Of a DNA stretch of 24,808 bases, positions 1,596 to 20,637 are shown piece after piece. Within the stretch, counting starts at the first letter, position 1. Each line of letters starts with the position of its first letter. Source of the stretch: a virus; the IMG/VR virus record IMGVR_UViG_3300018015_000429, one strand, 5' to 3'. The notes beneath the pieces are model-generated. The model saw nothing but the letters and a program-made list of their open reading frames with translations. It did no database searches and was not told the origin of the DNA. Position numbers and translations under genes: made by a program.

Positions 1596-2087
1596 TTGGG
1601 CGGGGGAAAGAATTGGACAGAGGCTGAAGAAAAGCTTCTGTTTGAAATGGTTCAGAGAGGAATGAACGCTCAGCAGATTTACGATTCAGGCATGTTTCCG
1701 AACCGCACTTTTCGCGCTATACTGAACGTGGTTGACAGAACCCGTATTGATTCAGGCGCCGAAAAGGAAATCCTCCTGAAGGCTCAGATTGGAGAGGCTG
1801 AGATAATCGGATTAGACTCCGTTGTCAAGCGGTATGTGGATGCTTTCAACAAGGTTTGCGATTTGAAGTCATGCAATAAAGAGGATTTGGAGCGTTTTCG
1901 CATCATCTTTTCTTCGGCTCGCGCTTACTTTGAAGTTTATTACAAGTTTCAGAAGTACGAAGAGGTGGAAAGACGTGTCGAGAGAGTTGAAAAGTTGGTG
2001 GCACAGTTGGCAGCAAAGAAGAACGCAGAGGATTCTCACACAAAGCTTAGACAAAACGGAAACCCAAGTCCGCAACCTCCTGTATGA
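1596..2087 (+). CDS. terS: Putative terminase small subunit (N-terminal Myb/HTH-like domain, C-terminal coiled coil)
   Basis: NWTEAEEKLL is a Myb/SANT-like start; helical EEVERRVERVEKLV segment; lies immediately upstream of and overlaps TerL. Assignment is mainly positional. Confidence 0.55.
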   Translation: MGGGKNWTEAEEKLLFEMVQRGMNAQQIYDSGMFPNRTFRAILNVVDRTRIDSGAEKEILLKAQIGEAEIIGLDSVVKRYVDAFNKVCDLKSCNKEDLERFRIIFSSARAYFEVYYKFQKYEEVERRVERVEKLVAQLAAKKNAEDSHTKLRQNGNPSPQPPV

Positions 2088-3758: not shown

Positions 3759-5147
3759 TTGAGTTTCGTCGCTGAAAGGGTCCGTAAGGGTTTGCAGGCG
3801 GTCAAGCAATTTGTAGGTAGATTTGTTGCTCAGCGACAAGTTCCCGAAGGCGTAAGCAAGAAACAGATTGAAGAGGAGGTACCCGTCAGCTGGAAAGCTG
3901 ACAACATGCTCTGGGGCTACGTCACCAAGTACATGCTTAAGGGCTCGGGAGCCGGCTTTGTTACTCCTCCATACATGGCGTATTGGGAACGTCTTTGGGG
4001 CGCGACGCCCGTCGAGGACCTTCCGGCCTACAAGGATTTATACACTTTTACGCCGTACATCAAGGCAAGCATTGACGTTACTGTGAACATGGCTATTGCC
4101 CAGGGTTTCGAACTTGAAGGTAGCGACGAGCAAATTCGCGAGTGGCTTACGGATTGGCTTGACGAGCATAATATTCTGCACACTTTGAGAATCATCGGCA
4201 CGGACATGCTTGTTTTTGGCAATGGTTATTTTGAGATTTGTCGCGATGAGAAGACACCAGTTGAGGAATGGTGGCTTAAGACATTAGATCCCGTGCACAT
4301 GCGAGTGCGGAGGGATGCGTACGGCAATGTTTTCGGGTACGTTCAACTTTTGACATTTCCTCCGGTCGCTTTTGTTGCGAATGACATTGTGCATTTTCGT
4401 TATGGCGCCAAGAGCTGGTGGTACGAGTGGAGTTACGGTACTTCCCTTCTTAGGTCATTGTTGAAGCTGCAAGCACTGATTGACCAGCTTCAGGATGACA
4501 TGGCGCTTATAATGCACATTTACACTAAACCCATGCTTGTCGTGAAAGCTGGGACGCCTGAAAGGCCCTTCAGTGATCCGCAGCTGCAGAGTTTGATGGA
4601 GGCTTTTCGTGATAGGAAACCTGCTACAGACATCTTCGTTCGTGGTGACGTTGAGGTTACTGTTGTTCAGAGCATGACGAAGGAAGTTAACATTGAATGG
4701 TGGATCAATTACCTTCTGGTTCAGCGATCCGCTGTCCTGGGCGTTCCGAAGATTTTCCTGGGCGAGAGCGAGCGGACGAACCGTGCAACCGCAGAGATTG
4801 TGATGCAGGAGTACGTTACTAGGCTGCGGATGCTGCAGGAACTCATCGGGGACACATTGGAGACTGCTCTCTTCAAGCAGTTGATACGGGAAAAGTGGGG
4901 AGAGGGCAAAGAAGTTCCCCATATTAAATGGCGGCCTGTCTGGGAGCCCACGCTTGACGTGAAAGCCAACTTCATCACGAACTTGGTTAAGGAGAAGATT
5001 ATCGCGCCCAGTGAGGCTAGGCCCCAGCTTGGCTATCCAGAGGAACTGCCTGAGGGATTATCGGAGAAGGGCCCTAGTGACGCGTCTGCTGGGTCCTCCG
5101 TTGCGATGGTCGAGGAGAGTAAGCCTGAGGATGCAGAAAACGCTTAG
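3759..5147 (+). CDS. Portal protein
   Basis: 462 aa after TerL; portal-type motifs DMLVFGNGYFEI, LDPVHMRVRRD, DIVHFRY, YGTSLL, LGVPKIFLG and NRATA. Confidence 0.9.
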   Translation: MSFVAERVRKGLQAVKQFVGRFVAQRQVPEGVSKKQIEEEVPVSWKADNMLWGYVTKYMLKGSGAGFVTPPYMAYWERLWGATPVEDLPAYKDLYTFTPYIKASIDVTVNMAIAQGFELEGSDEQIREWLTDWLDEHNILHTLRIIGTDMLVFGNGYFEICRDEKTPVEEWWLKTLDPVHMRVRRDAYGNVFGYVQLLTFPPVAFVANDIVHFRYGAKSWWYEWSYGTSLLRSLLKLQALIDQLQDDMALIMHIYTKPMLVVKAGTPERPFSDPQLQSLMEAFRDRKPATDIFVRGDVEVTVVQSMTKEVNIEWWINYLLVQRSAVLGVPKIFLGESERTNRATAEIVMQEYVTRLRMLQELIGDTLETALFKQLIREKWGEGKEVPHIKWRPVWEPTLDVKANFITNLVKEKIIAPSEARPQLGYPEELPEGLSEKGPSDASAGSSVAMVEESKPEDAENA

Positions 5148-5747: not shown

Positions 5748-5754
5748 CGTGAAA

Positions 5755-6876
5755 ATGCAGCTCAAGTATTATGTTCCGTTCAAGGCGCAAGAAGGCGTCG
5801 ACGCACAGTTTGCCTTAAAAGAGAAGCTGATCAATATCGAAGGGCTCGCTATTGACACGAGCGTAAATAAGAATAGGTGGCAGGTTCCAGAGGAGGACCT
5901 TGACTTTTTCACTGAAACGCTTAGAGGAGCTCAGTTGCGTGCGGATCATGCTGAAAGCGTTTTCATGATTGTTGGCAAAGTGCCGGAAGCGAAGCGCCAG
6001 GGGCAAGAAGTTTTTTTCAGGGCTGAGGTCGGCGGGGAAGAGAAACTTATTGACAAGATTCTACGTGGGTACGTGAAGTATGTTAGTGTCCAGGTTGATA
6101 GTGACGATGTTGAGTGCAGCAAGTGTCATCAGCAAACTCGGAAGGAAGGCCTACTCATTCACTTATGCGCCCCAGATGCTTGGGAAATCGTGCACAAGCC
6201 CACCGTCCGAGAGCTCAGTATTGTTGCTTCTCCCGCTTACGAGAAAACCGAGTTTACGCCTGTTGGCTTCGCGGCTGCAATGAACGAGAATCAGTCTGAG
6301 CAGCTCGCAAACTTTTCACAGTCACTTCAAAGTGATGATGTGGGTTCTGGGCGTGAGCCGCAAGAACCTGAAAAACAACAATCAAACACAAAAGAGGTGA
6401 AGCACTTGCCTGAACAAAATGCTCAGCAAGCAGCTTCTCCGCATCAAGCGCAAGGAGTAGTTAACGTCGCACCAGGAGAAGGTGCGCCGAAAGAGCATAC
6501 GTATCAGCAGTACATCGACCAGTTGACGCAGCTTAAGCAGCAGATAATGCAGAGGCCTGGAGCTTCCGACGCTGAACTCGACGACTTGAACAAGAAAATC
6601 GCAGATCTCGAGAGTGAACTCGCGAAGAGAGCGAAAAAGGCGGAGCTGGGAAGGAAAATCAGCGAACTGTCGAAGAAGGTTGGCGAGGAAGCGCAGGAAG
6701 GCCAGGAAGAGGGCGAAGAGGCGAACGGTTCAAGTGCAGCGGAAGCGAAACATGCCAGTGGCAAGGGCATCGTTGGGGCCATTGAAGTATCGAACCCTGA
6801 TAGTCTCGGCAATTTTGACTGGTTCAAAGACCTGATCAAGGCTTCACGCAAGCTTAGCGCTGGATTCAAGGGTTAA
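5755..6876 (+). CDS. Prohead maturation protease (HK97/herpes-like serine protease fold) fused to a C-terminal scaffold
   Basis: GGTGA at 5743-5747 then ATG 5755; IEGLAIDTSVNKNRW, ADH (His), VSVQV, RELSIVASPAY (Ser); acidic coiled-coil C-terminal half. Confidence 0.85.
   Translation: MQLKYYVPFKAQEGVDAQFALKEKLINIEGLAIDTSVNKNRWQVPEEDLDFFTETLRGAQLRADHAESVFMIVGKVPEAKRQGQEVFFRAEVGGEEKLIDKILRGYVKYVSVQVDSDDVECSKCHQQTRKEGLLIHLCAPDAWEIVHKPTVRELSIVASPAYEKTEFTPVGFAAAMNENQSEQLANFSQSLQSDDVGSGREPQEPEKQQSNTKEVKHLPEQNAQQAASPHQAQGVVNVAPGEGAPKEHTYQQYIDQLTQLKQQIMQRPGASDAELDDLNKKIADLESELAKRAKKAELGRKISELSKKVGEEAQEGQEEGEEANGSSAAEAKHASGKGIVGAIEVSNPDSLGNFDWFKDLIKASRKLSAGFKG
6406..6876 (+). CDS. Nested in-frame scaffolding protein (internal start in the protease gene)
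   Basis: GAGGTGA at 6394-6400, 5 nt before an in-frame TTG at 6406, at the end of a low-complexity linker; product would be 156 aa, Q/E/A/K-rich and helical. Confidence 0.65.
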   Translation: MPEQNAQQAASPHQAQGVVNVAPGEGAPKEHTYQQYIDQLTQLKQQIMQRPGASDAELDDLNKKIADLESELAKRAKKAELGRKISELSKKVGEEAQEGQEEGEEANGSSAAEAKHASGKGIVGAIEVSNPDSLGNFDWFKDLIKASRKLSAGFKG

Positions 6877-7290: not shown

Positions 7291-8184
7291 ATGAGTTTTC
7301 AAAGAGACGCTTTAACATGGGTTGACACCGGGGCAGTAGCGTATCCCGCGTTGCACCAGCACATCATCGAATTGACCATGCCCGCACTTATCGTCAAGCG
7401 TTTGCTGCCTGAGTTTCCGTTGGTTGCAGGACGAACCGCGACGTTCGTAAAGGAAAAAGGAAGCAGAAGCATTGGCATCAGCGAGATCACCGAGGGCGCC
7501 GAGATTCCGATGGATTTCACGCCCCTTGACTATGTGAGTATCACGCCCTACAAGAAGGGCGAACGGATCCGTGTACCTCGCGAGCAGATTGAAGACCTCT
7601 ACATCCCAGTAATAGAACAGCAGCTCAGACGTCTGGCAAGACGTGTAGCCTACCAGATTGACAAGGACTGCCTCACATGTATTGACGCTGCGGCTGCCAA
7701 TTCAAGCGGCGGCACAGGGACCAGCATGGGAGCGACAGGAACAGAGTTCACAGTCTCGGGCGGCATCGGTACGAAGGATATTCTGTGGGCTGACGCGAAG
7801 ATTGCAAGTTACAACTTCCTCGCTGACAGCATCCTCTGCAATCCGATTAACGCTCGCGATCTAAAGTACCTCCCGCATTTCAGCCTAGCTATGCAGTACG
7901 GTGAACCAGTAATCCAGTCAGGAGCAATCGGCAAAGCGTACGGTTTAGACTTGTACGTGAGTACCGTTGTGTCTGCAGGCACAGCGTACGTGTTGAGCAC
8001 GGGTCAAAACCTAAGTGGTTCTTATGCTCCCCTCGGATTCTTCGTCATCAAGCGGCCTTTGCTGTCTGATTTGGACGTCAAGAAAGAGTTCGACGCAGTC
8101 GACGTTAGCTTGACGACGAGGTATGCGCCTGTTGTCACGGTCGGAGAAGCAATCGTCAAAATAACCGGCTTGAATACAACTTAG
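7291..8184 (+). CDS. Major capsid protein, HK97 fold
   Basis: 297 aa; EITEGAEIP, KKGERIRVPREQIED, RRLARRVAYQIDKD, ILCNP, GKAYGLDLYVS and TRYAPVV motifs; canonical position. Confidence 0.92.
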   Translation: MSFQRDALTWVDTGAVAYPALHQHIIELTMPALIVKRLLPEFPLVAGRTATFVKEKGSRSIGISEITEGAEIPMDFTPLDYVSITPYKKGERIRVPREQIEDLYIPVIEQQLRRLARRVAYQIDKDCLTCIDAAAANSSGGTGTSMGATGTEFTVSGGIGTKDILWADAKIASYNFLADSILCNPINARDLKYLPHFSLAMQYGEPVIQSGAIGKAYGLDLYVSTVVSAGTAYVLSTGQNLSGSYAPLGFFVIKRPLLSDLDVKKEFDAVDVSLTTRYAPVVTVGEAIVKITGLNTT

Positions 8185-8269: not shown

Positions 8270-10603
8270 ATGAGTTCGGACAACAATAAGGGGTTAGCCC
8301 AGAGCATTCAGGTCAACGGTTTGACGTGGGCCAAGACGTTGATGATTTGTGCAATCCTAGTGTGTGCTGGGGTTGCCGCGTATTTTGGCGCCAATGTCTC
8401 CATGAGTGTCAGTCTTGCGGATAGGGTGCAAAACGTTGAAAATCGTATCGACATTCCCGTTAACAGTACCTTAAGCGCATTCCAGAAGAGCAACACGTTT
8501 CTTGTGATCCCACACGGTACCGGAGTATGCTTAATGAATGGTTCAGGATACTTCCAAGAATTCCTCGGAAATCAGACTCAAGTAATCATGGATGGGCTGA
8601 ATAATGCTTCAATCAGCGGTGGGAGCGTTTACGTTCAAGCGGGTAGTTACTCAGCTTCTGTCATCATTCAGAATAATACTCGATTCATCTTAGAGAAAGG
8701 CGCCACAGGAATAACGTACTCTGTAGCTCCTGGCGCTTACTGCATTATAGATGATTTCAACAGCGGCATATTCCAGTACTATGCTAACGGCAGCCTTTAC
8801 AGTCAATTCGATTATGCGCATAGCAACCTGCTTGTGCAGTCTGCTAATTTGACTTCTGTTTACGCTACAACCCTAGATCAGCTTAGCAGCGGTCAAGGCG
8901 TCAAAGTTCTGCACTTCATCGTCGAGAGCGGAACAAGCTTTCCATCTCCAATTGAGGAGCGAGTGTTCTTCAGAAGCGACCAAGGATACTTATATGTCTA
9001 CAACAGCGGATCTTGGACTGCAATCGGTGCCATCCCAAGCACGTATCCATACGCTAATCTCACAGGAGTTCCGCAAACTTTTCCGTACACTAACTTAACA
9101 AGCGTGCCTCAAACCTTTCCATACGCGAACTTAACGGGGCCACCCACACAGTATCCTTGGGCAAACTTGACGGGAATCCCTCTGCTCATTTATGCTAATG
9201 GTTCTCAGGGTCTCACAGCAGATTGGAATATTACGGGTTATGGCATTTTTGGCGCAACGTTATTGAACAGTACTCAGATTAATGCTAACTATTTCTGGTT
9301 GAACGGACAGAACCGCACTGATACGCTTGCCTATCCCATTGAACCTGTCGCTTACATCATTGACTATTCAGACGGAATCACGGCGCGAGTGAAAAACTGC
9401 ACAACTGGACAAGTAGACTACGCGAATTCCAATCAAACGCTAGCCGTTCAATACGCCTTTAATCATACAGACTGGACGGGTGCGCATGGAACACAAAAAG
9501 TGGTGCTGAGAGGTAACTTCAGCCTCAACTATTATCCAAACGTGCCCGCATATGCAGATATCGAGATTCAAGGCTATCTGAACGTAGTCAACAAAGCTGC
9601 TTTTATGCTCTGTTTCGATGATAGTCTGGCAATTCAATACAGCACTTACTTCAAGAACCTAACCTCGATATGGGGTTACAGAGGAAATGAGGCAGTTGTC
9701 GTTGATTGGCTTGCTCATGCAGGAACAACAAACACAACTTATACAACTCTTGCGAACCTGAAAGAAATGCGCGATGCAGGATGGAGTTTCTACAGTCACG
9801 GATGGTACAGTATTGACCTAAGCGCTGCTACTGTAACCCTTTCCCAGCAAGATCAAGAGATTCGGCAAAGCAAAGACTGGATTGAACGAAATCTTGGAGT
9901 ACGCGTCGATTCTATACAGTGGCCTAATGCTAAGCAAGGCGATATGGAAATGGCCAGGCAATACTACAATTACCTTGCTTACGGAAACTGGAAATCATGG
10001 CCAAACCAAACGTGGAACTATATCTCAGACTCCATGAGCGCATATTTTCCGACAGAAACAAACTTCAACGGCTCAAAACAAGACGGTGGAGTCATCGCGG
10101 CTGCTGCGTGGTATGCAGTTAACAGTACAGGCTCAGGATCAAACGGCGAGCTTGCAATTCTAACGTTCCACGGAACGATGACTAATTACTGGTTCAACCT
10201 GTGCATGGGAAACCTGAGCAGTTTCGGTCTTCCAGTTCTGACTTGGCGAGATGTTGACTACTACCTGAGCAAGCAACCGAAACCGACTATTGCAGGAGTA
10301 GATATTACTCTTAGAAATGAAGGAAATCAAACAGCTTGCGTTAACGGAACTTGGATAAAGCATAATCTCGGAGTAATTCCAAACGCAACATCAGTAACGC
10401 TAGGCAACTTCACATACATCAATAGTACTGCTTACTATATTGGCCCCTTCGTCATAGCATCCTCAATGAATTCAACATGGTTCCAAGTAGAATTTCTAAT
10501 CTGGAACGCTGGAACAATCACGCCCGTTGCAGTAACAGATCAACGAACGCTCATCTGGACTGCTTACTACGAGAAAATTATCATCTATCCAGCGCAAACA
10601 TAA
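8270..10603 (+). CDS. Membrane-anchored, sequon-rich multidomain protein: tailspike/fibre-like modules, NodB/CE4 polysaccharide-deacetylase-like domain and C-terminal beta-sandwich
   Basis: N-terminal TM (TLMICAILVCAGVAAYFGA); GGSVYVQAGSY beta-helix-entry motif; FPS...VFFRSDQGYLYVYNSGSW fibre motif; four (Y/F)P(Y/W)xNLT repeats; CFDD / SHGW / WPN / LTFHG CE4-like motifs; about 32 N-x-S/T sequons counted by hand. Confidence 0.8.
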   Translation: MSSDNNKGLAQSIQVNGLTWAKTLMICAILVCAGVAAYFGANVSMSVSLADRVQNVENRIDIPVNSTLSAFQKSNTFLVIPHGTGVCLMNGSGYFQEFLGNQTQVIMDGLNNASISGGSVYVQAGSYSASVIIQNNTRFILEKGATGITYSVAPGAYCIIDDFNSGIFQYYANGSLYSQFDYAHSNLLVQSANLTSVYATTLDQLSSGQGVKVLHFIVESGTSFPSPIEERVFFRSDQGYLYVYNSGSWTAIGAIPSTYPYANLTGVPQTFPYTNLTSVPQTFPYANLTGPPTQYPWANLTGIPLLIYANGSQGLTADWNITGYGIFGATLLNSTQINANYFWLNGQNRTDTLAYPIEPVAYIIDYSDGITARVKNCTTGQVDYANSNQTLAVQYAFNHTDWTGAHGTQKVVLRGNFSLNYYPNVPAYADIEIQGYLNVVNKAAFMLCFDDSLAIQYSTYFKNLTSIWGYRGNEAVVVDWLAHAGTTNTTYTTLANLKEMRDAGWSFYSHGWYSIDLSAATVTLSQQDQEIRQSKDWIERNLGVRVDSIQWPNAKQGDMEMARQYYNYLAYGNWKSWPNQTWNYISDSMSAYFPTETNFNGSKQDGGVIAAAAWYAVNSTGSGSNGELAILTFHGTMTNYWFNLCMGNLSSFGLPVLTWRDVDYYLSKQPKPTIAGVDITLRNEGNQTACVNGTWIKHNLGVIPNATSVTLGNFTYINSTAYYIGPFVIASSMNSTWFQVEFLIWNAGTITPVAVTDQRTLIWTAYYEKIIIYPAQT
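9044..9181 (+). repeat. Four 36-bp (12-aa) intragenic repeats
   Basis: YPYANLTGVPQT / FPYTNLTSVPQT / FPYANLTGPPTQ / YPWANLTGIP. Confidence 0.9.
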
Positions 10604-10648: not shown

Positions 10649-11362
10649 ATGGGTTCAGCAACTATCCTTGCAGGAAATACTTACGTTGATGTAGTGCACG
10701 GTCTCTCCTTTACGCCGACAATCGATGAGATCGTGCTAGTGCCTCAGGATGATCTAGGCGGTAGAGATTTCTGGCCTAGCAATCCAGGTCCCACAACTTT
10801 TCGCATAAACATTTCCATGGTAGACCCTGATACAAACCATACTTTCAGCTGGCAGCCTGTTCTACCAACTCTCCCAACACCACCACCTAGTGCTCCATCT
10901 CCTGACATCTTCATTAGCGCCAACGATATTCAAGCACAGCTCAACGCAGCATATGATTCTTCAAGTCTTATCTACACCGTTTTCGGCTTGCCGGTCTCCC
11001 AAGCAAGCTTCCAAGCGCACGTGAACTTCGCAAACACGTACATCCTCAACATTATAGGACCCGGAGGAGACCCTACTAGCAGTCGTTATCAGACAGCAGT
11101 ACTTACAGCAATGGACATTGCCTGTATAAGAATTCTAGTGGTCAGCCTTGGGGGAAGCCTTGTAGGAGCCTTCGACTACTTCATCGGAGATATGAGAGTT
11201 GCCAGAGCAGGACCGTACGCAACCGCAATAAAAGAGGCGCTTCAAGGCTTCCATGATGACTTGTTAAGGGTTCTCATGAACCTTTCGACGTCTGTTGTCA
11301 CGGTAGAAGCAAGTGCCAAGGATGATGTGCCAACGTATAAGGGAGGGCTCATGAATCCGTGA
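10649..11362 (+). CDS. Head-tail adaptor (gp6/gp15-like helical domain) with an N-terminal beta-sandwich and a Pro-rich linker
   Basis: C-terminal part FISANDIQAQL...FQAHVNFANTYI...AVLTAMDIACIRIL...DYFIGDMRV fits adaptor patterns; linker PVLPTLPTPPPSAPSP; position after the MCP. Confidence 0.65.
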   Translation: MGSATILAGNTYVDVVHGLSFTPTIDEIVLVPQDDLGGRDFWPSNPGPTTFRINISMVDPDTNHTFSWQPVLPTLPTPPPSAPSPDIFISANDIQAQLNAAYDSSSLIYTVFGLPVSQASFQAHVNFANTYILNIIGPGGDPTSSRYQTAVLTAMDIACIRILVVSLGGSLVGAFDYFIGDMRVARAGPYATAIKEALQGFHDDLLRVLMNLSTSVVTVEASAKDDVPTYKGGLMNP

Positions 11363-11490
11363 GTAAAGTCCTGGGAAAGGGTAACTATATCCTTGCCAAG
11401 GTCAATGGTACCAAAATGGTGCTGACAAGTACTGAGATGCAGCAGCTTATCAATAATGGCTATGATGTTGAAGTGGTCACGCCAACCTAA
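11359..11490 (+). CDS. 43-aa small protein MSKVLGKGNYILAKVNGTKMVLTSTEMQQLINNGYDVEVVTPT (below the ORF-track cutoff)
   Basis: GTG overlaps the adaptor TGA (GTGA); GGAGG RBS lies just upstream. Confidence 0.55.
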   Translation: MSKVLGKGNYILAKVNGTKMVLTSTEMQQLINNGYDVEVVTPT

Positions 11491-11502
11491 GGCCTATCAG
11501 GG

Positions 11503-11760
11503 CTACCATTTCTGTTCTGCCCAGCTTCTGTTATCAACGAGATAGAAGTCCTTGACCTTTCGATGCTCAAATACTGTCAGTCCAAAAAGCTTATCCAAAT
11601 CTACGATTCTAACTGGATAGTTTTCGCGCTCATGCACTAGCTCCTGAGTTAATCTACCTGAGACTACTGGGTTAATGAGTAACGCTATTGGTTGCCTTCC
11701 TGCTTCTCGGCATAATCTAATTGCTTCCTGAATTTGCGCGAGTATGATTGTCTTTGGCAT
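11503..11760 (-). CDS. Antisense 85-aa protein resembling an isolated HK97 capsid A-domain
   Basis: GAGGA RBS and TTTAAATAT TATA-like box (11802-11794) on the minus strand; QIQEAI...PIALLINP...RL...KLFGLTVF...FYLV pattern parallels the MCP. Confidence 0.6.
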   Translation of the reverse strand: MPKTIILAQIQEAIRLCREAGRQPIALLINPVVSGRLTQELVHERENYPVRIVDLDKLFGLTVFEHRKVKDFYLVDNRSWAEQKW

Positions 11761-11914
11761 TCCTCGTCATCCTGTACTTGTTTGGGAAAATCAATATTTA
11801 AACTTGAAGGAGCATGCCAAACTCAGGCCTGTGACTCTCAGAAGCTTTGACTTTTGATACTTTTTCCCTTCTCCGGTACAAACGTTTAGGCTTTTCTGAG
11901 GGCAGGAAATCTCT

Positions 11915-12031
11915 TTGAACGAGACTTTAAGGAAATTGAGTAAGTTAGTCTGTAAGAACTGTTCCAACTCTGATTATGACCTTTGCAGCAGTTGCGAGAT
12001 TCACAAGTTGATAAATGAACTCTTGAAGTGA
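11915..12031 (+). CDS. 38-aa zinc-finger microprotein MNETLRKLSKLVCKNCSNSDYDLCSSCEIHKLINELLK
   Basis: CxxC-x7-CxxC; TTG start; stop lies 4 nt before the next ATG (12036). Confidence 0.6.
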   Translation: MNETLRKLSKLVCKNCSNSDYDLCSSCEIHKLINELLK

Positions 12032-12035
12032 AAAG

Positions 12036-13658
12036 ATGGGCACTGTGCCTCAGAGCTATTACGATTTCATCGTGCATTACGCGCCGTACTTTTACGTGAT
12101 TCCAACCTTGCTGACGGCAGACGCGGCACTAGGACAGAAGAACGTAACGGTTGCGGATGGAACAAAGTTTCAAGCGGGATATCCTGTTCAAATCTATGAT
12201 AATATGCATAGCGAGTGGAACCTTGTTTCAAGCATTAACGGAAACATTGTCACTATGCAGAATAATCTTGTCTATGCCTATCAGATAGCTCAGAATGGAA
12301 CTGTAGAAGGCCCAGATCCTGGTTATGGTCAAGGCGTCTTCCCGGCTGCTTTTGCTATAGACTTTCTTTATCAAGCTTACTCGAGCAGCCAATTTACTAC
12401 GAAGCAGATAGATATCCTTACAAAGATCAGAGCCCTTGCAGACTTTATTCTCACGCAGCAATGCACAAATGCAGCTAAGAAAGCCTACGGCGGCTTCCAA
12501 AATGCTCAAGGAAGTACTGAATACTGGAGTGTCGACGCCGGCCGCTGCATACCTGCTCTTCTAGAAGCCTACAGCTTAACAGGTACAGCAACGTACCTTG
12601 CCGCAGCAGTCCTTGCGGGCTCTACTTTCCTATATAACATACAGCATAATCCCAGCCTTCTGGGCGTCCATGACAAGTATTATGGTGGCTTCGCAAGGTA
12701 TGTCGACATTAACGATGCCTGGAGCGAGCTGATGGACGTTGAAAACCTCTACTGCTTAATTGGACTTTCAATGCTAGCTCAAACTTACGATGGAGTACAC
12801 ACATCTATATACACCGCAATGATGACTGATCTAGTTAGCTCCCTGCGAAGCGGCTATGAGCAATTTTACTTGTGGTTTGACCCTAAGCCGACTGGAGACG
12901 GAAAATGGCATCGTGTAAGCCTTGGCGAAACACAAATCTATGACGATCCTTTCAGCTTCGCGCTCTTGGGTCTCTTCACGTATGAAGGATGGAGCACGAC
13001 CGCTGAGAATGTGTACAAGTTTCTTGGTAGTGTCCAGGCATCAGCTCAGTACCCAGCATATAATCCTGCTATCTGCTGGCCAGGATATATCGATGTTGTT
13101 CAACGGTTCCCAGCATGCGCCTATTACGATGCTCTAACGATCGGGATCCTTGGATCCATTCGTGCAGCGCATGATAAGCCTGCTTACTCTCTGAGCATGC
13201 AGGTTCTCGCTGAGTACTCAAATCAATTTCTTTTCTGGGGTCCTATATTCACGGATTACAGTCCGATAACTGCTCAAAAAGCAATGGCAAACGTAACGTG
13301 GCTAGCGCGCTTTTTCCTAAGCTATCAAGAGCCACAAACAGATATGACGAATATGCTGGCCACAAGTGGTGAAGATCTACAGCTTTACCCTGTGATAGAA
13401 GCTGCTGACACAATTACTTGGGGCAACGAGTTGGATTTGAAAGGTATGGTCACTCCGGGCGCGACAGGGGAAATCGTCATTGAGCCTGGCTACATCACGG
13501 AGAATAATATTACGGTTCACAGTTTCTTGCCTATTCGAGTGCATGATAAGATTCGCCAGGCAGGCGTGGACTATGAGGTTAAGACGGTTCAAGTTCACGA
13601 TTTCCAAGGAGATCCAGTGTTCTATAAAAGCGTCTGTAGGAAGCTGATCAATCAATGA
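12036..13658 (+). CDS. Head-closure/stopper (gp16-like C-terminal domain) fused to a large (alpha/alpha)-toroid glycosidase/cyclase-like domain
   Basis: Last ~95 aa (LKGMV...ITVHSFLPIRVHDKIRQAGVDYEVKTV...YKSVCRKL) match the stopper pattern; the N-terminal region has repeated helix plus YGGF/GKW turns typical of six-hairpin toroids; position between adaptor and terminator. Confidence 0.6.
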   Translation: MGTVPQSYYDFIVHYAPYFYVIPTLLTADAALGQKNVTVADGTKFQAGYPVQIYDNMHSEWNLVSSINGNIVTMQNNLVYAYQIAQNGTVEGPDPGYGQGVFPAAFAIDFLYQAYSSSQFTTKQIDILTKIRALADFILTQQCTNAAKKAYGGFQNAQGSTEYWSVDAGRCIPALLEAYSLTGTATYLAAAVLAGSTFLYNIQHNPSLLGVHDKYYGGFARYVDINDAWSELMDVENLYCLIGLSMLAQTYDGVHTSIYTAMMTDLVSSLRSGYEQFYLWFDPKPTGDGKWHRVSLGETQIYDDPFSFALLGLFTYEGWSTTAENVYKFLGSVQASAQYPAYNPAICWPGYIDVVQRFPACAYYDALTIGILGSIRAAHDKPAYSLSMQVLAEYSNQFLFWGPIFTDYSPITAQKAMANVTWLARFFLSYQEPQTDMTNMLATSGEDLQLYPVIEAADTITWGNELDLKGMVTPGATGEIVIEPGYITENNITVHSFLPIRVHDKIRQAGVDYEVKTVQVHDFQGDPVFYKSVCRKLINQ

Positions 13659-14638
13659 GCGTAGAGGATCCAGTTACAACGGTTATCCGACTACTCACAA
13701 AGAATGTGAGAGTAGTCAAGGATGATAGTTCTGTTGCAAGCTTCTATGCTAGCGAGCAATGGTACGACCGTGAACTCTTCAAGAACTACGATGCTCAATT
13801 AACCGTAGGCATACGGCAGATTCAGGACCAGAAGCTTAACATCGCAGGGACAGTACGCCAGCAGAAAGGACTACTTGCCGTCAATCTATGGGCTATGGAC
13901 CGTGTAGGAAGTTCTGATCCTGGACGTATGATTCGAAAGAAGCTTGTTGAAGAGATCAAACGCATCGTAAGACAAAACATGAAGGTTCCAAACCAGACGA
14001 TCTATGATTTTGCTGGCCTTGGATATCCCTCTGGAGACCCACATAAAGCCTTCTCATCTGCTGCTGCAACCGAGCTGATCCCCTCAAGTACTAGCTGGGT
14101 AGAACTTACAAACCTCGAGTACCAGAACATTTGGTACAGCGATAACATTCGCTATTCAAAAAGCACGTCCGTTAATCTTCAGGATGCCTTGATGCTCTTT
14201 CGCTTCAAGCCCTCGAGTAAAGCTCCTGTAGCCTCACAGATTCTTTTAGCTTTCGAAGGATACGGTATTGCTCCCGCTGGGAACGGTTTCACTATCAAGG
14301 TATGGAATAACGTTTCTTCTGCTTGGGAAAGCGCTCAAACGGGTTCTGGTGGATCCGACCAAGTAGTAACTATTACGTTAATATCAGCTCTCACGAATTA
14401 CATTGATGCTTCTGGGTATGTTTGGCTGCTTGCCCGGACGACTAACCCGAGTAATGGAACGACTCCTGCAGTACTCTACTGCGACTATGTAAGCTGCACA
14501 GTTAGCGTTAACGGCATCACATATCTCGACGTCGTCAGCTATGGAGATAAGGACAAAGTTGACGTCAAGCCCATCCTTTTCAGAACAGAATTCACTCTCA
14601 AATCATGGGCATTTGAGACTATCCTAGGTATCTATTAA
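13655..14638 (+). CDS. Tail terminator/completion protein with a large inserted beta-rich domain
   Basis: ATGA-coupled; VNLWAMD...RKKLVEEIKRIVRQN and C-terminal FRTEFTLKSW frame a roughly 175-aa Ser/Thr/Trp-rich beta insert; directly precedes the tail tube gene. Confidence 0.6.
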   Translation: MSVEDPVTTVIRLLTKNVRVVKDDSSVASFYASEQWYDRELFKNYDAQLTVGIRQIQDQKLNIAGTVRQQKGLLAVNLWAMDRVGSSDPGRMIRKKLVEEIKRIVRQNMKVPNQTIYDFAGLGYPSGDPHKAFSSAAATELIPSSTSWVELTNLEYQNIWYSDNIRYSKSTSVNLQDALMLFRFKPSSKAPVASQILLAFEGYGIAPAGNGFTIKVWNNVSSAWESAQTGSGGSDQVVTITLISALTNYIDASGYVWLLARTTNPSNGTTPAVLYCDYVSCTVSVNGITYLDVVSYGDKDKVDVKPILFRTEFTLKSWAFETILGIY

Positions 14639-14652
14639 AAGGTGAAAAAAGA

Positions 14653-15528
14653 ATGAGTGTTGAAACGTACGGTGCGCAAGAATCAAGAATCTACTTCGTA
14701 GCGGAATCTACCTATGGCGTAACCCCTGCAAGCCCAGCTATGCTGGGAATAAACGCGGAAGAATCAGATCCATTAGTCGATCCAGCATTGATCGGAGTCA
14801 TGGGCCTTGGAAGTAGAGACCTCCAGGCACTCTATGCTGGCCTTCGAAAGATAACTCTAAAAATCCCGAACAAACTCAGCAGTCTAGCACCCATCAGCTT
14901 AATCCAGCACGTGCAAACCTTGAGCAGTCTTAGCATACAGACGATCTATTACAAGGGCCTCTGGTCAGCTCCAACAAACATCATCAGCTACCTATTCTCC
15001 GGCTGCAAGGTTAACAAACTAACCGTTGAATGCAAGCTTGAAGACGTGATAAAGTCAACCGTAGAACTGCTTGGCCAAAGCTGCACAAGGTTGACCGCTC
15101 TCATACAGAATGCAACATACGGCGATTTCGTAGGTGCAGTTCCCTTCAACAGCAGCTTCGTCCAAAGAGGAGTAAGCGGCGGCACAGGTCTTGTAACATT
15201 GACAGATATAACGGACTGGAAATTTGAGATTGACAATAACCTCAAGCCTGTTGGAACGATTCAAAGCGGCGGCACAGGGCTCATCCTAAAGTACCTTCGT
15301 GAGCGCAACAGAAAACTTAGCGGAGAGCTGACAATGGAATTCGAGAACGATAGTGAAATGCAGGACTTTCTCCTAGATACTGAATTCAGCCTATCATTCG
15401 GCTTAGGAAGCACAAACACCGCCTTATTCACATACTGCAAATGGGACCAGATTGAGACGCCAGACAAAATGGATGACTTAATCAGCGTAAAGGCCAAATT
15501 CAAAGCACGCAATCTCTTCATAAGCTAA
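14653..15528 (+). CDS. Major tail tube protein
   Basis: GGTGA RBS; N-terminal YFVAESTYGVTP, FSGCKVNKLTV, WKFEIDNNL, RKLSGELTMEF; precedes the chaperones. Confidence 0.85.
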   Translation: MSVETYGAQESRIYFVAESTYGVTPASPAMLGINAEESDPLVDPALIGVMGLGSRDLQALYAGLRKITLKIPNKLSSLAPISLIQHVQTLSSLSIQTIYYKGLWSAPTNIISYLFSGCKVNKLTVECKLEDVIKSTVELLGQSCTRLTALIQNATYGDFVGAVPFNSSFVQRGVSGGTGLVTLTDITDWKFEIDNNLKPVGTIQSGGTGLILKYLRERNRKLSGELTMEFENDSEMQDFLLDTEFSLSFGLGSTNTALFTYCKWDQIETPDKMDDLISVKAKFKARNLFIS

Positions 15529-16071: not shown

Positions 16072-16263
16072 ATGAGACGCGAAACACCGCATCCAGCTCT
16101 AACTAAGTACAGACTTTGCAAAGAATTCGGATGGACACTCCAGGAGCTAGATAAGCAGCCTTCCAAAAGGATCCAGGAATTTCTGATTATCATTAAGGAG
16201 ATTGACCGGCAAACTAAACTTGAGATTGAAAAGGCTAAAAAGGAGACTAATCGAGCCCGTTGA
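16072..16263 (+). CDS. Tail assembly chaperone T segment (C-terminus of the GT fusion, 15725-16263)
   Basis: LCKEFGWTLQELDKQP is a typical gpT-like motif; frame is -1 relative to G and open from the slippery site. Confidence 0.8.
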   Translation: MRRETPHPALTKYRLCKEFGWTLQELDKQPSKRIQEFLIIIKEIDRQTKLEIEKAKKETNRAR

Positions 16264-16631
16264 GCATAGAGTTTCGTGTTGAAGTTGGCGGCGTTGAAGA
16301 ATTCGCTAGAAAGATGCGCACATTAGATGAGAACACGCAAGCATATGTACAGGATGCTTTAAACGAGGTTGGCCAGCTTGTTGCTGCTCGAGCGCGCCAA
16401 CTAGCTCCCGTACGAACAGGCCTCTTGATATCAAGCATATTTGCCGAGATAATCTACAAATGGGTCGTCAAAATCGCATGCAGAGTACCCTACGCACTCT
16501 TCCAGGAGCTAGGAACAAGGTACATTCAGCCCCGCTTTTTCTTGACACGCGCCCTCGAAGAGAACAGAATCAATTTTCTCACGATTATCGCAGCCGGCTT
16601 ACAAAGAGCTGCAGATGAGGCATCAACATGA
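16260..16631 (+). CDS. HK97 gp10-like tail completion/neck protein
   Basis: GVEEFARKMRTL...ARARQLAPVRTGLLISSI...YALFQELGTRYIQPRFFLTRAL is the HK97 gp10-family signature. Confidence 0.85.
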   Translation: MSIEFRVEVGGVEEFARKMRTLDENTQAYVQDALNEVGQLVAARARQLAPVRTGLLISSIFAEIIYKWVVKIACRVPYALFQELGTRYIQPRFFLTRALEENRINFLTIIAAGLQRAADEAST

Positions 16632-17734
16632 GCATGGGCGAAATATCCGTAAACGTAAAGGCAATCAACGAGGCTACGTCTGAGTTTGAAGCGGTAGCTG
16701 CTGACGCTGCCTCTATGTCTTCTGCTGTTTCAGCTTCACCCTTGATTTTGCGACTCGAAAATCTTGTCTCCCCTGAGCTCAATGCTGTCGCTGAGGATGC
16801 AGCAAGAGTCAAAGCAAGCGTTGAAGCTTCCCCGGTGGCAATCAGTTTCGCACCTATCCCTCTTCCATATATCCCTCCGATTGAGGTTCCCCCGATTCAA
16901 ACAGGTTTCGCGCCTATTGAGCTCCCTGTAATCCCGCCGATAGAAGCTCCCACGGTAACGATAGACGTTCCACCAATTGAAGTTCCCCCTATCCCACCGA
17001 TTGACACTACGCTCATTCAAGATAGCATTAGCCAGGTCGGCACGCGTGCTGTTGAGATGGGTAGTGAGATTTCGGATGCTTCTTCGGTGGCGGCAAGTTC
17101 TTTTGCTGATGTTGGAGCCGGCGCAACGGAGATGGGAGCGCAAGTTGAGGCAGCATCTTCTTCTTTTACGGATATGCAGACGCACGTCGAAACGTGTAAT
17201 GTGAGCTTGCGCTCAATTTCAAGTGGTTTTAGAAGCTTCGGGATGATGGGTACAGAAGTTACGATGCTTGCTAGCAATTTCGGGCTTGTTGACAAGGAAA
17301 CAGCAAAATGGATGCGTACGATATCGCTTATGATAACGGTTGTGGCCACTGCAGCTCGAATGTACAGCTTCCTTTCAATGATGACTACCGGCCAGACGGC
17401 TGCTGTTGCGATTGAAGGAACTACAGAAACGGCCACTGCAGGCGCCATCAGCCTTTCAACAGTCGCCCACAACATCTATGCTACTGCATGCCAGATTGCA
17501 ACTGCAGCCGAAAACGCCTTGAACATCAGCCATGCAACCTTCCTAGCCTTGACGGGAGTTGGAATCGCCGTTATCATAGCAGCAGCTGCAGCAGTATCGA
17601 TTTTTGCGGCAAATATGAACAATGCCACGGCAAGCGTCAACAGTTACAATACTGCAGCAAGCAAGGTTCCAACGGTTACTAGAAACATCCAGCGTGCTCA
17701 AGAACAGAATATGCTTCGACGTGGTGTTGAATGA
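16628..17734 (+). CDS. Short tape measure protein with a Pro-rich repeat region and C-terminal hydrophobic segments
   Basis: N-terminal EISVNVKAINEATSEF is a TMP-type start; Ala/Ser/Thr-rich; LTGVGIAVIIAAAAAV TM-like segment; located between chaperones and hub. Confidence 0.7.
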   Translation: MSMGEISVNVKAINEATSEFEAVAADAASMSSAVSASPLILRLENLVSPELNAVAEDAARVKASVEASPVAISFAPIPLPYIPPIEVPPIQTGFAPIELPVIPPIEAPTVTIDVPPIEVPPIPPIDTTLIQDSISQVGTRAVEMGSEISDASSVAASSFADVGAGATEMGAQVEAASSSFTDMQTHVETCNVSLRSISSGFRSFGMMGTEVTMLASNFGLVDKETAKWMRTISLMITVVATAARMYSFLSMMTTGQTAAVAIEGTTETATAGAISLSTVAHNIYATACQIATAAENALNISHATFLALTGVGIAVIIAAAAAVSIFAANMNNATASVNSYNTAASKVPTVTRNIQRAQEQNMLRRGVE

Positions 17735-20637
17735 GCATCGGCAGCGTTGGGATCCCCCAGATCGCAGTTGTTTTAGGCACTGTTACACCCCCTCAAGGGG
17801 ACGTCATCGATGTTAGAGTGCATCTTGGCTGCACGAAAGAAGTCAGCAGTTTTGAGTTGACACTTCAGAACTGGAATAAGAAGTACAGTCCAGGCGGATC
17901 CACTCCGATAACTGTAGGCTCTAACGGCAGTATCTACGTTGGCAGAGGAACGAACGTACCCCCGATTATCACTTGCAAGGTTGAGGATATCGAGTATGAT
18001 GAACCATCGGTTGACGAGCATTATCTTAAGGTGACGGGCCGCTGCTGGGGAGAACGGCTTTTCAGCAGGGTCGTAAGCAGGACGTACACGAATCAGAAGG
18101 GCGAAGCAATAATCAAGGACTTGATGGATAATTTCGCAGGCCTCAGCCATACCAGAGGCGGCGTTGAACTTATCGAGAATACGAGTACAACCTATGCATT
18201 ACTTGACTATGACAATACCACACTTTGGGATATCCTCAAGTACATTGCCGAAACCTCGGATCTGAACGGAGCTATCGGCTTTGATTCTCGTGTTGCTCCT
18301 GATGGCAAGTTTGAGTTTTTCCCCTTGAACAGCAAAGCAGCAAGCGTATCACTAATAAATGTTCCAGAAGTTACGGGCTACAAAAAAGGCATTACTAGAA
18401 TTCGAAATAAGATATACGTTTTCGGCGCTGCAGAGAAAGTCTATCCTGTAAGCATGGATTTATTCACGGAAGGAACTAGCGGCTGGACAGCAGATGCAGG
18501 AGAGACATTAAGCGCAGATGGTACTAACAAGGTTTTCGGAAGCTACAGCGTATATATTCAAGGCGTTTCCACTTGGCCGTACCCTGCTTGCCGTATGAGG
18601 CTTGCCTTGCCCTCGAGTGTTGACTGCGGTGGCCATAATGGTTTTCAGCAGCTTAACTATGCTGTACGCAAGACTGGACAATGCATTGGCGGGAACTATT
18701 GGTTTTACTACTTTTACGTTCGTCTCATGACTGATGCTAACAACTATTTTGAGAAAATGTACACGATTGCTGAAGCTGATCAGCAGGACCAGCGCTGGGC
18801 ATACAATACAGATAGACTTGGCAAATCCTATGAAGTTCAAAGTAGTACGGAGCCTTACTGGGTTGCTTATGGAAATCCAGATTGGAGAAACATAAACTAC
18901 ATAGAGTTTGCTGGCTCAGGTGTCTGCGGTCCAGTTAACACGAATGGCTGGATTGCAATTAACGTTGACAAGCTTTTCTTTGATAAGGGTAGATACTCAG
19001 CAGTTGAGCAAGTTGCTGGCGATGAACTTCGTGAGCTCGCAGAGACTGATGAGGAACTTGTTAGTGATGCTGAATGTGACCTACGGGCCAAAAGTCTGCT
19101 AGCGTACTATAAGGACCCAGCGGAGTCTTTAACTGTCAAAAGCACGATTCTTGATTATGGTACCACGCCTATTCTTCCTGGAGACACTGTGCACGCTACT
19201 TTTCCAAATGAGAATGTCGACGGTGATTATCGCGTTGACACTATGGAGTATTATGCCGATAGCAAAGAGCAGACGCTTGAAGTAACTGTTGAGCTTGGAA
19301 AAGTCGCACCGCAACTTGCGGATTATCTTTATGGTATGCGCTCGAAAAGCATGAGCGTTGAAAAGCTTGCCAGGACAAAGGCTGGAATTGGCCAATTCGC
19401 AGTAGGATCCTTAAGTGCTGGTGCCGGTGGCGGTGGTGGGAATCATCATATTGGCCATGAAGTAGGAGACGTTAACGGCATTCAATATAGCAGCCCAGGA
19501 GTCGGCGGCTGGGATCCCCTCACAGGCTGGGTCGCACCGAACTTCATAGGGCCCCTTAGTGATACTGCAGCAGTCACTACTTTCAGAACGAAAAACAAGG
19601 CTAGCAGCATACCTATTGATCATCATTTTCAGCCTAGCGATAATGAATATGGAGTTTTGGGATGCGCTACTTATCATTGGAAAGAGATCCAAGGTAAACT
19701 ATTATTCTTGTATCAGGGCCTAGTTGCGCCCTATGGCGGCATAAAGATTCTCAATCAAGGTGACGCAAATCCCTTAGTATCTCTGATTAAGGACTACCTT
19801 GAATTCGGTCCTGGTGGCGCCTCAGCTCTTGATACTTGGCTTCACCGGATAGCAGCAGGAGAGATTGAGGTCAAGAATGACCTTGTACCAACAGGAGACA
19901 ATGCGGGGAAGATTGGTTATGGTGCTCCTTCAGGTGGTACAGCGCTTCGTTGGAGCGAGATTCACGCTGTAGACATTTACGGCAGCCAGTTTCATTTAGC
20001 TGGAAACTTTCTTCCGGACGCTGATAATCTTTATGATATTGGTGCTACTTCGCAGCGTTGGCGGGATATTTACCTCTCCGGAGCCATCAAAGGCTTGGCT
20101 GGCGGAGTAGCCGTTCAGTTTCTGCCAAATGTTGATAATCTGTATAATCTAGGCGCTGTAGGAGCGCGCTGGGGTAACCTTTATCTTGCAGGTGTCGCCG
20201 ACGTTGGCTGGCTGAATATCGCTGGTACCATAGTCATCTCAGACGCGCGTATTCTGCAGAATGTAACAATGGACGCTGGCCTAATTACAAGTGGAAAACT
20301 CAACAGCTTAAGCAGACTGCCAAACGGCACAAGCGGCTATGTTCTTGAGGCTGAAGGCGCGAGTGACCCGATGTATGTTAACCCGAATGGACGATATACT
20401 CCTGCTGGCCACACGCATGCTGCAGGAGACATCATCAGCGGGGTCTTAGCTGAGGCAAGATGTCCCAATGTTTACGCTGGTGCAATAACGTTCAATGGCG
20501 GGATAACTGCTTCTGATTATAAAAGCAGTTACGGGACTTCAGGTTTAACAGCTGATGTTGCCGTTGCGAAGGTGGGTGGCGGCACTCGTACGTTGCATTT
20601 TCAAAATGGACTATACGTTGGATACACTGACAGTTAG
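17731..20637 (+). CDS. Baseplate hub/Tal-like protein fused to an inserted CBM-like domain and a C-terminal tail-fibre region
   Basis: Hub motifs FELTLQN, LKVTGRCWGERL, TLWDILKYIAE, RIRNKIYVFG, ILPGDTVH; Trp/Tyr-rich insert (~18457-18985); GGGGG linker; repeats FLPDADNLYDIGATSQRWRDIY; HTHAAGDI fibre motif. Confidence 0.8.
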   Translation: MSIGSVGIPQIAVVLGTVTPPQGDVIDVRVHLGCTKEVSSFELTLQNWNKKYSPGGSTPITVGSNGSIYVGRGTNVPPIITCKVEDIEYDEPSVDEHYLKVTGRCWGERLFSRVVSRTYTNQKGEAIIKDLMDNFAGLSHTRGGVELIENTSTTYALLDYDNTTLWDILKYIAETSDLNGAIGFDSRVAPDGKFEFFPLNSKAASVSLINVPEVTGYKKGITRIRNKIYVFGAAEKVYPVSMDLFTEGTSGWTADAGETLSADGTNKVFGSYSVYIQGVSTWPYPACRMRLALPSSVDCGGHNGFQQLNYAVRKTGQCIGGNYWFYYFYVRLMTDANNYFEKMYTIAEADQQDQRWAYNTDRLGKSYEVQSSTEPYWVAYGNPDWRNINYIEFAGSGVCGPVNTNGWIAINVDKLFFDKGRYSAVEQVAGDELRELAETDEELVSDAECDLRAKSLLAYYKDPAESLTVKSTILDYGTTPILPGDTVHATFPNENVDGDYRVDTMEYYADSKEQTLEVTVELGKVAPQLADYLYGMRSKSMSVEKLARTKAGIGQFAVGSLSAGAGGGGGNHHIGHEVGDVNGIQYSSPGVGGWDPLTGWVAPNFIGPLSDTAAVTTFRTKNKASSIPIDHHFQPSDNEYGVLGCATYHWKEIQGKLLFLYQGLVAPYGGIKILNQGDANPLVSLIKDYLEFGPGGASALDTWLHRIAAGEIEVKNDLVPTGDNAGKIGYGAPSGGTALRWSEIHAVDIYGSQFHLAGNFLPDADNLYDIGATSQRWRDIYLSGAIKGLAGGVAVQFLPNVDNLYNLGAVGARWGNLYLAGVADVGWLNIAGTIVISDARILQNVTMDAGLITSGKLNSLSRLPNGTSGYVLEAEGASDPMYVNPNGRYTPAGHTHAAGDIISGVLAEARCPNVYAGAITFNGGITASDYKSSYGTSGLTADVAVAKVGGGTRTLHFQNGLYVGYTDS

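Follow-up and report, generated by a model that had tools for sequence, protein, structure and literature searches.

The DNA considered here is a stretch of 24,808 nucleotides from a virus (IMG/VR virus record IMGVR_UViG_3300018015_000429), which is referred to, at its full length, as the window. Between the gene for a spike-like protein of 777 amino acids (aa) and the tail tube gene, it holds three open reading frames (ORFs) that are candidates for the adaptor, stopper, and terminator of the viral neck, each with an additional domain. A preliminary description of this DNA had drawn the same ORFs (10649-11362, 12036-13658, and 13655-14638; 237, 540, and 327 aa), and its outline of their architecture holds in detail: the adaptor-like protein begins with an extra domain (residues 1-70) and a proline-rich linker (residues 71-85); the stopper-like domain occupies approximately the last 95 aa of the 540-aa protein (a beta domain at residues 446-536 in the AlphaFold2 (AF2) model); and the beta insert of the terminator-like protein, put at approximately 175 aa, comprises 174 aa (residues 113-286). 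We consider it rather likely, with a probability of roughly 0.6, that the neck carries a collar of accessory domains, probably glycan-binding, besides the tail tip. The features on which this reading is based are as follows.

8270-10603, + strand: 777-aa membrane-anchored, deacetylase-like, spike-like protein (Polysacc_deac_1, E 1.9e-6)
10649-11362, + strand: adaptor-like ORF, 237 aa
10649-10858, + strand: adaptor residues 1-70, mobile beta module of ~68 aa (Atlas structure search and profile search)
10859-10903, + strand: adaptor residues 71-85, proline-rich linker (read from the translation)
10904-11362, + strand: adaptor residues 86-237 (~152 aa), adaptor-like core (the conserved unit among relatives)
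12036-13658, + strand: 540-aa ORF
12036-12320, + strand: residues 1-95 of the 540-aa protein, N-terminal helix and small beta domain (AF2 model)
12321-13340, + strand: residues 96-435, predicted six-hairpin (alpha/alpha)6 toroid, glycosidase/epimerase-like (by fold)
13341-13658, + strand: residues 436-540, probable stopper/head-closure-like beta domain (AF2, Foldseek)
13655-14638, + strand: 327-aa ORF
13655-13990, + strand: residues 1-112 of the 327-aa protein, N-terminal part of the predicted tail-terminator core
13991-14512, + strand: residues 113-286, inserted domain of 174 aa, predicted carbohydrate-binding module (CBM)-like jelly roll (model and alignment with insert-free relatives)
14513-14638, + strand: residues 287-327, C-terminal strands of the core (alignment with the C-termini of 152-aa relatives)

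Domain architecture of the three neck proteins

The clearest assignment is that of the 327-aa protein, the core of which is predicted to adopt the alpha/beta terminator fold. In a VIA search, which is independent of Foldseek, the alignments run over residues 1-327 apart from the middle, and the structures matched are solved tail terminators and collar proteins, including one from a gene transfer agent (6tba). The same division is seen among relatives: two other IMG/VR loci, L062 and L037, have an ORF of 152/153 aa at the same position (E 3.5e-9 and 1.2e-5 with the hidden Markov model (HMM) of the N-terminal core), and these short terminators line up with residues 1-113 and 287-327, leaving the insert as a clean gap. 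The insert itself, which interrupts a loop of the core, is modelled as a beta-sandwich jelly roll of the CBM type (CBM22/29/4-like), in which five tryptophans (W148, W160, W217, W224, and W257) are invariant among homologues; its mean identity to the window is 67%, compared with 59% for the N-terminal part of the core. A 467-aa variant of the protein has a further domain of ~140 aa nested within the insert (L034, 3821-5224; L025, 7401-8804; also P0230 and P0232). PF27237, named AF_1625_C in the Atlas, is present in all 120 listed members of the 327-aa family, and a literature search found no mention of AF_1625. The tube gene begins at 14653, shortly after the end of the ORF at 14638. In L062 (9705-10958) and L037 (4266-5501), a separate protein of 411-417 aa is encoded after the plain terminator and before the tube gene. 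The L062 copy (417 aa) has no relation to the toroid or the insert and no family match; this protein may be a neck or tail accessory that is not fused.

The AF2 model of the 540-aa protein is good (predicted local distance difference test (pLDDT) 84.1, predicted template modelling score (pTM) 0.87; for the 327-aa protein, 68 and 0.54). The model consists of a helix (residues 6-15), a small beta domain (20-95), a helical toroid (~100-445), and a beta domain (446-536), the last of which is preceded by a helix (436-444) and has two long hairpins. This C-terminal domain probably has a stopper-like fold. When the whole model was submitted to Foldseek, a neck chain of phage Pam3 was retrieved at rank 32 (8hdr_A; 110 aa, template modelling score by target (TMt) 0.74, root-mean-square deviation 4.0, E 1.4e-4), and ranks 2-50 in BFVD were mostly viral proteins of 102-173 aa, 11 of which bear head-tail or connector names (head-tail joining, head-to-tail stopper, closure knob, or head-to-tail connector; TMt 0.5-0.68). 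In the part of the source consulted, the Pam3 connector gp11 is said to comprise a helix at the N-terminus, a barrel, and two hairpins that point downward (PMC9942802). This description fits the C-terminal domain of the 540-aa protein, although the identity of 8hdr chain A as gp11 is not confirmed. The position of the gene is consistent with a stopper: it is the only large ORF between adaptor and terminator, no alternative stopper ORF lies in that interval, its stop overlaps the terminator start (ATGA, 13655-13658), and genes of the 540-aa and 327-aa types occur together in all 20 loci of the window type. Moreover, the stopper slot of L062 and L037 is occupied by a stand-alone ORF of 141 aa, the best non-self match of the C-terminal domain HMM (E 0.006).

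The central part of this protein is predicted to adopt the six-hairpin (alpha/alpha)6 fold of glycosidases and epimerases, and in the VIA search of the 540-aa model, toroid matches alone are found among the 50 matches listed, so that the stopper-like matches obtain no range from it. The toroid is better conserved than the stopper-like domain, with a mean identity to the window of 68% and 14% invariant columns (52% and 6.7% for the stopper-like domain), and residues D167, D303-D304, E317, and D365 are invariant among homologues. Pfam C5-epim_C scores on the 540-aa protein are below the cut-off. Residues 1-95 have a mean identity of 69% (85 homologues) and a weak K1-lyase_Rider match (E 0.051). 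It was also observed that the toroid stretches that AF2 models poorly (residues 295-303, 349-367, and 402-412) are among its best-conserved parts: 32% of the columns in the loop 349-367 are invariant, and D303-D304, Y363, Y364, and D365 are all invariant. This suggests that these stretches form a functional surface or a partner-binding site.

The 237-aa protein is the least certain of the three. Its core, which is probably helical and ends in a conserved C-terminal VPTYRGGLxxP tail, is by itself a protein of ~154 aa in most relatives. Of the 120 homologues listed, 17 span the full length (231-245 aa); the majority of the rest have 144-178 aa and cover just the C-terminal 57-76%. Conservation is lowest in the proline-rich linker (mean identity to the window, 33%). 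Structural leads come from the Atlas, in which gp6-like connector clusters are matched with feature scores of 0.86-0.87 and a PF05135 cluster aligns to residues 89-219 with a template modelling (TM) score of 0.56 by row and 0.30 by query (model pLDDT 0.68). In relatives, e.g., L016 and L017, the adaptor gene adjoins the capsid gene (86-base gap), whereas in the window the spike-like gene lies between the two. On the basis of gene position, the core-only relatives, and the Atlas leads, it is plausible that the core is a head-tail adaptor.

All three architectures recur in large families (130, 753, and 796 matches for the 237-, 540-, and 327-aa proteins, respectively, among 8000 candidates scored) and thus are not due to chance. 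In addition, conservation of the added domains equals or exceeds that of the cores, which argues for purifying selection and hence for a constrained function rather than that of a fast-evolving receptor tip.

The adaptor module, the spike-like gene, and mosaicism of the locus

The module at the N-terminus of the adaptor-like protein is a mobile unit. Residues 1-73 match a 77-aa viral cluster with a TM score of 0.75 by row in the Atlas structure search, and the 68-aa module turned up in many other proteins when 1.84 billion representatives were searched by profile. In 148 representative proteins, 118 instances were located, most of them at the C-terminus of long proteins (69) and the rest N-terminal (24) or internal (25), the internal ones including triple tandems. 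Ten carriers were scanned for known domains; two have Polysacc_deac_1, three have Beta_helix, and five are without any domain match. Among adaptors, the module is missing in most relatives and is replaced or relocated in others, and it is therefore accessory. P0314 has a BppU_N-type extension in its place, and the N-terminus of the 263-aa adaptors of L015 and L020 looks similar, by eye, to that extension. The adaptor of L050 carries the module at its C-terminus, and L061 has it as a separate ORF of 101 aa.

The presence of the module goes together with that of a large neighbouring gene, which in the window encodes the 777-aa protein with its N-terminal membrane anchor (seen in the translation). 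The interval from capsid to adaptor gene is complete in 66 loci. All 12 loci in which the adaptor has the N-terminal module contain an ORF of 639-1154 aa in this interval, and 51 of the 53 loci with module-less adaptors contain no ORF of at least 400 aa there; the two exceptions, L015 and L020, combine the other extension type with an ORF of 472-484 aa. Because most module-less loci lack it, the spike-like gene is evidently not a constant member of this virus group. In L050, an ORF for a membrane-anchored protein of 674 aa lies immediately downstream of the adaptor gene, and in L061 the large ORF between capsid and adaptor genes is absent. Thus, an extension of the adaptor and a large neighbouring ORF are linked in three different layouts. 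The loci concerned in this joint inheritance of extension and spike-like ORF are L001-L013, L015, L020, and L050. The adaptor module is tied genetically to the spike-like gene and probably cooperates with the spike-like protein or tethers it. The idea that the module is shared with the 777-aa protein of the window itself was dropped, as neither BLASTP nor the module HMM finds it there.

Downstream of the adaptor, the loci diverge. Of the 80 loci collected (L001-L080), 22 are too short on this side, and the remaining 58 were assessed for neck/tail type. The window type is found in 20; in 32, a small ORF is followed directly by a gene for an HK97 gp10-like protein; in L011 and L065, the tube gene comes after a small ORF; the plain pair of stopper-slot and terminator genes, with the separate 411-417-aa protein before the tube gene, is seen in L062 and L037; and two fit none of these types. 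One head module, extending from terminase to capsid and including the adaptor core, is thus joined to at least three unrelated neck/tail modules. Mosaicism is therefore extensive, and its breakpoint lies just after the adaptor and the small ORFs. Within this group, insert-free and extension-free versions of the neck proteins exist in related viruses, and such plain versions, beside the decorated ones, offer a natural comparison set for the function of the added domains.

The other genes considered are listed below.

1930-3372, + strand: terminase (late operon)
3759-5147, + strand: portal (late operon)
5749-6876, + strand: protease/scaffold (late operon)
Between the protease/scaffold and capsid genes, + strand: 130-aa protein (PHROG head-scaffolding match)
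7291-8184, + strand: HK97-type capsid protein (PF25209)
11359-11490, + strand: conserved 43-aa ORF, the start of which overlaps the adaptor stop
11503-11760, - strand: 85-aa antisense ORF inside the neck block
11915-12031, + strand: 38-aa CxxC...CxxC protein, directly upstream of the 540-aa gene
14653-15528, + strand: tail tube protein (PF18906, E 4.6e-19; phrog_290, E 1.1e-23), directly 3' of the terminator
Between the tube and gp10-like genes, + strand: ORFs of 113 aa and 63 aa
16260-16631, + strand: undecorated HK97 gp10-like tail-completion/Neck1 protein (phrog_5, E 2.4e-23; PF04883, E 1.9e-5)
+ strand: 368-aa ORF, putative tape measure (by gene position alone; no family match)
17731-20637, + strand: 968-aa ORF, putative tail-tip hub/fibre (by gene position alone; no family match)

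The window thus contains a complete late operon of a head-tailed virus, with all of its genes on the + strand. As this operon holds no sheath gene, the tail is non-contractile. The source names of homologues of the 237-, 540-, and 327-aa proteins point to Bathyarchaeia, and a contig of 863,897 bases encodes an identical copy of the 237-aa protein, which makes it probable that a provirus is involved; the window belongs to a Bathyarchaeia virus or provirus of siphovirus-like, head-tailed type. The gp10-like gene lies 3' of the tube and chaperone genes, an order kept in all 20 window-type loci. Of the small ORFs in the neck block, that of 43 aa follows the adaptor directly in most loci (identity up to 93% by tblastn) and has no family match. 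In most window-type loci, the 38-aa protein is encoded ahead of the 540-like gene, but it is also found in loci without such a gene, and it has a weak match to the ZZ zinc finger (E 0.017, below the cut-off). The antisense ORF of 85 aa has no Pfam match; its homologues in L021, L024, L027, and L075 lie, likewise on the minus strand, between the portal and protease genes, and it looks like a small mobile gene outside the neck proper.

A proposed collar at the head-tail junction

In the arrangement that we propose, the adaptor (237 aa) would form a presumed 12-mer on the portal, the stopper (540 aa) a presumed hexamer, and the terminator (327 aa) a presumed hexamer capping the tube. The plain gp10-like tail-completion protein would be the fourth neck component; its gene (16260-16631) had been left out of the three-part neck of the preliminary description. 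Rings assembled in this way would show approximately 12 + 6 + 6 accessory domains on their outside, as a collar round the head-tail junction. Such a collar would most likely bind glycans of the host surface or matrix, and the toroid may also process glycans, whereas the adaptor module would probably work with, or tether, the 777-aa spike-like protein. It had been supposed earlier that the extra domains form a collar of glycan-binding or glycan-cleaving character. The sugar-related folds are indeed present (a six-hairpin toroid and a CBM-like jelly roll), and a function on glycans would follow from likeness to those folds. The accompanying suggestion that interaction with the host has moved from the tail tip to the neck is not upheld, since the putative hub/fibre of 968 aa is kept; the neck domains are an addition, and the collar would act in addition to that tail-tip protein.

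A bolder version can be framed, according to which this group of Bathyarchaeia viruses has a second, enzymatic neck organ, with six toroids on the stopper ring, six CBMs on the terminator ring, and 12 adaptor modules tethering or cooperating with an exported spike, that would bind and cut or epimerise glycans, for example as a receptor-destroying device by which particles are released from debris or steered across a glycan layer. This version is doubtful. To our knowledge, no ring protein of a tailed virus has been assigned such a role, and we know of no experimental work on the attachment of viruses to Bathyarchaeia.

Several points weigh against the collar. No profile from Pfam, PHROGs, the PDB, or the hhalign comparison with SPP1 assigns one of the three cores to an established neck family. 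The earlier claim that the cores match neck folds is backed by structure (clear for the terminator, probable for the stopper, plausible for the adaptor) and not by sequence profiles. For the adaptor, there is no Pfam match in any of 43 family members, the core by itself has no Pfam or PHROG match, and the comparison with SPP1 gp15 gave E 0.99. Neither the whole 540-aa protein nor its residues 436-540 have a Pfam match (including PF05521) or a PHROG connector match, and the E value with gp16 was 0.15; the 327-aa protein has no Pfam or PHROG terminator match, and that with gp17 was 0.25. Searches of PDB sequences with four profiles (two of them for the adaptor) gave chance-level matches such as interferon gamma, TFAM, and MJ1480, with nothing beyond chance for the adaptor, nothing relevant for the stopper domain, and none for the terminator. 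The models also set limits: that of the terminator is mediocre (pLDDT 68, with residues 286-327 below 50), and the Atlas model of the adaptor is poor (pLDDT 0.68), its feature scores of 0.86-0.87 lying under the lead threshold of 0.9. Foldseek gave no aligned ranges, and the stopper matches were placed on residues 436-540 by size and secondary structure, although the N-terminal beta domain of the same protein is similarly sized. Scores relating the 141-aa ORF to the stopper domain are weak (HMM E 0.006; hhalign E 0.016, probability 2.9%). The counts of co-occurrence come from related contigs and are phylogenetically non-independent. Finally, the added domains are highly conserved, which typical receptor-binding tips are not.

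It is possible, although we would not favour it, that the adaptor module is a docking piece of the spike-like protein, which would then form a neck appendage in the manner of phi29 or of a collar whisker, or that it is a leftover of the C-terminal module of a spike, stranded by a shift of the gene boundary. The link between extension and large ORF in three layouts (upstream in 12 of 12 loci; L015 and L020; the downstream 674-aa ORF in L050) agrees with this, as does the occurrence of the same module at the end of many deacetylase and beta-helix proteins. However, the 777-aa protein is membrane-anchored, and how it would join a particle assembled in the cytoplasm is hard to explain; its sequence in the window contains no module detectable by BLASTP or the module HMM; in L061 the module is an ORF of its own (101 aa), and no large ORF lies between capsid and adaptor genes; and the loci behind the linkage are related to one another. 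The link between an adaptor extension and an exported spike nonetheless bears on how a cytoplasmically assembled particle could gain an exported part.

It is unlikely, in our view, that the extra domains are structural, i.e., that they brace the neck, contact the capsid or the tube, or aid assembly, with the toroid as a catalytically dead scaffold. Such a role would be in keeping with the high conservation of the added domains, which host-range determinants do not share, and with the neck of Staphylococcus phage 812, where, in the part of the report consulted, beta sandwiches contact the capsid and the sheath and decoration proteins are proposed to reinforce interfaces (PMC12886913).

Least probable of all is the notion that the 540-aa protein is no stopper but a soluble or lysis/egress glycan enzyme with a superficially stopper-like barrel, the head being closed otherwise: the lack of PF05521 or PHROG connector membership, the Foldseek E of only ~1e-4 with no ranges given, and the name 'pectate lyase' given by the source to one homologue would suit it, but the overlap of the gene with the terminator start within the neck block (ATGA 13655-13658), the joint presence of 540-like and 327-like genes in 20/20 window-type loci, the viral BFVD matches of ~110 aa (11 with neck names) together with a solved neck chain, and the want of an alternative stopper ORF all stand against it.

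The reading of the neck as a decorated collar therefore remains the one that we prefer. Neck proteins are usually seen as small, passive gaskets; here, in uncultivated archaeal viruses that form a large and widely found family, domains that are enzyme-like and sugar-binding-like appear to be built into the rings. If these domains are active, then the neck, as well as the tail tip, would take part in adsorption or release.

Comparison with known systems

The closest counterparts by position are gp15, gp16, and gp17 of phage SPP1, which occupy the same slots between capsid and tube genes and have the same presumed roles. That SPP1-type neck proteins are small, as had been noted before, is borne out by the products of genes 15, 16, 16.1, and 17 (102, 109, 144, and 134 aa, respectively), and the sizes of gp15, gp16, and gp17 match those of the cores. 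The neck proteins of the window are 2.3 to 5 times longer than their SPP1 counterparts, with no detectable sequence relation. The gene order differs as well: in SPP1, the tail-completion gene lies between stopper and terminator, whereas in the window the gp10-like gene comes after the tube gene. Other solved terminators, i.e., lambda gpU (3fz2), T5 p142 (8bcp), and the HFTV1 tail chain 9fkb_Pa, have 129-159 aa, are insert-free, and share 9-14% identity with the 327-aa protein; unlike them, the 327-aa family carries PF27237.

The toroid has its likeness among six-hairpin enzymes (CPF_2247 (3ren), cellobiose 2-epimerases, GH76 mannanases, GH88, and GH8), to which its identity is 7-15%. No virion component is listed among the enzymes matched, nor does any of them carry a fused stopper-like domain. 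Among the titles and abstracts listed by a literature search, no case was found in print of a stopper fused to a glycoside hydrolase or a six-hairpin enzyme-like toroid, and tblastn against 50,697 GenBank phage records yielded no relatives of the 540-aa and 327-aa proteins. The parts consulted of two papers on Bathyarchaeia viruses (PMC10848311 and PMC11705971) contain no description of such neck proteins.

The preliminary description knew of no characterised virion with all three ring proteins decorated, but one exists. According to the part of the report consulted, Staphylococcus phage 812 has an external beta-sandwich domain on each of its adaptor, stopper, and terminator, in addition to two decoration proteins (PMC12886913). 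In that virion, the sandwich on the adaptor touches the capsid and the one on the terminator attaches to the sheath; a strengthening of interfaces is proposed for the decoration proteins (PMC12886913). The proteins concerned are gp96 (adaptor), gp97 (stopper), and gp99 (terminator) (PDB 8q01). Nonetheless, phage 812 is a bacterial myovirus, whereas the window belongs to an archaeal siphovirus-like virus, and the extra domains of phage 812 are small structural beta sandwiches, whereas those of the window include an enzyme-like toroid unit of ~440 aa and a CBM-like domain in the terminator.

Parts for host interaction or sensing are mounted on the neck in other phages as well, such as the gp12 appendages of phi29, the neck passage structure of lactococcal phages with its CBMs, and the whiskers of T4. 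These, however, are separate proteins docked on the neck, whereas in the window the domains are fused into the ring proteins. Set beside these systems, what is new here is the fusion of the toroid to the stopper, together with the strict link between an extension of the adaptor and the spike-like gene.

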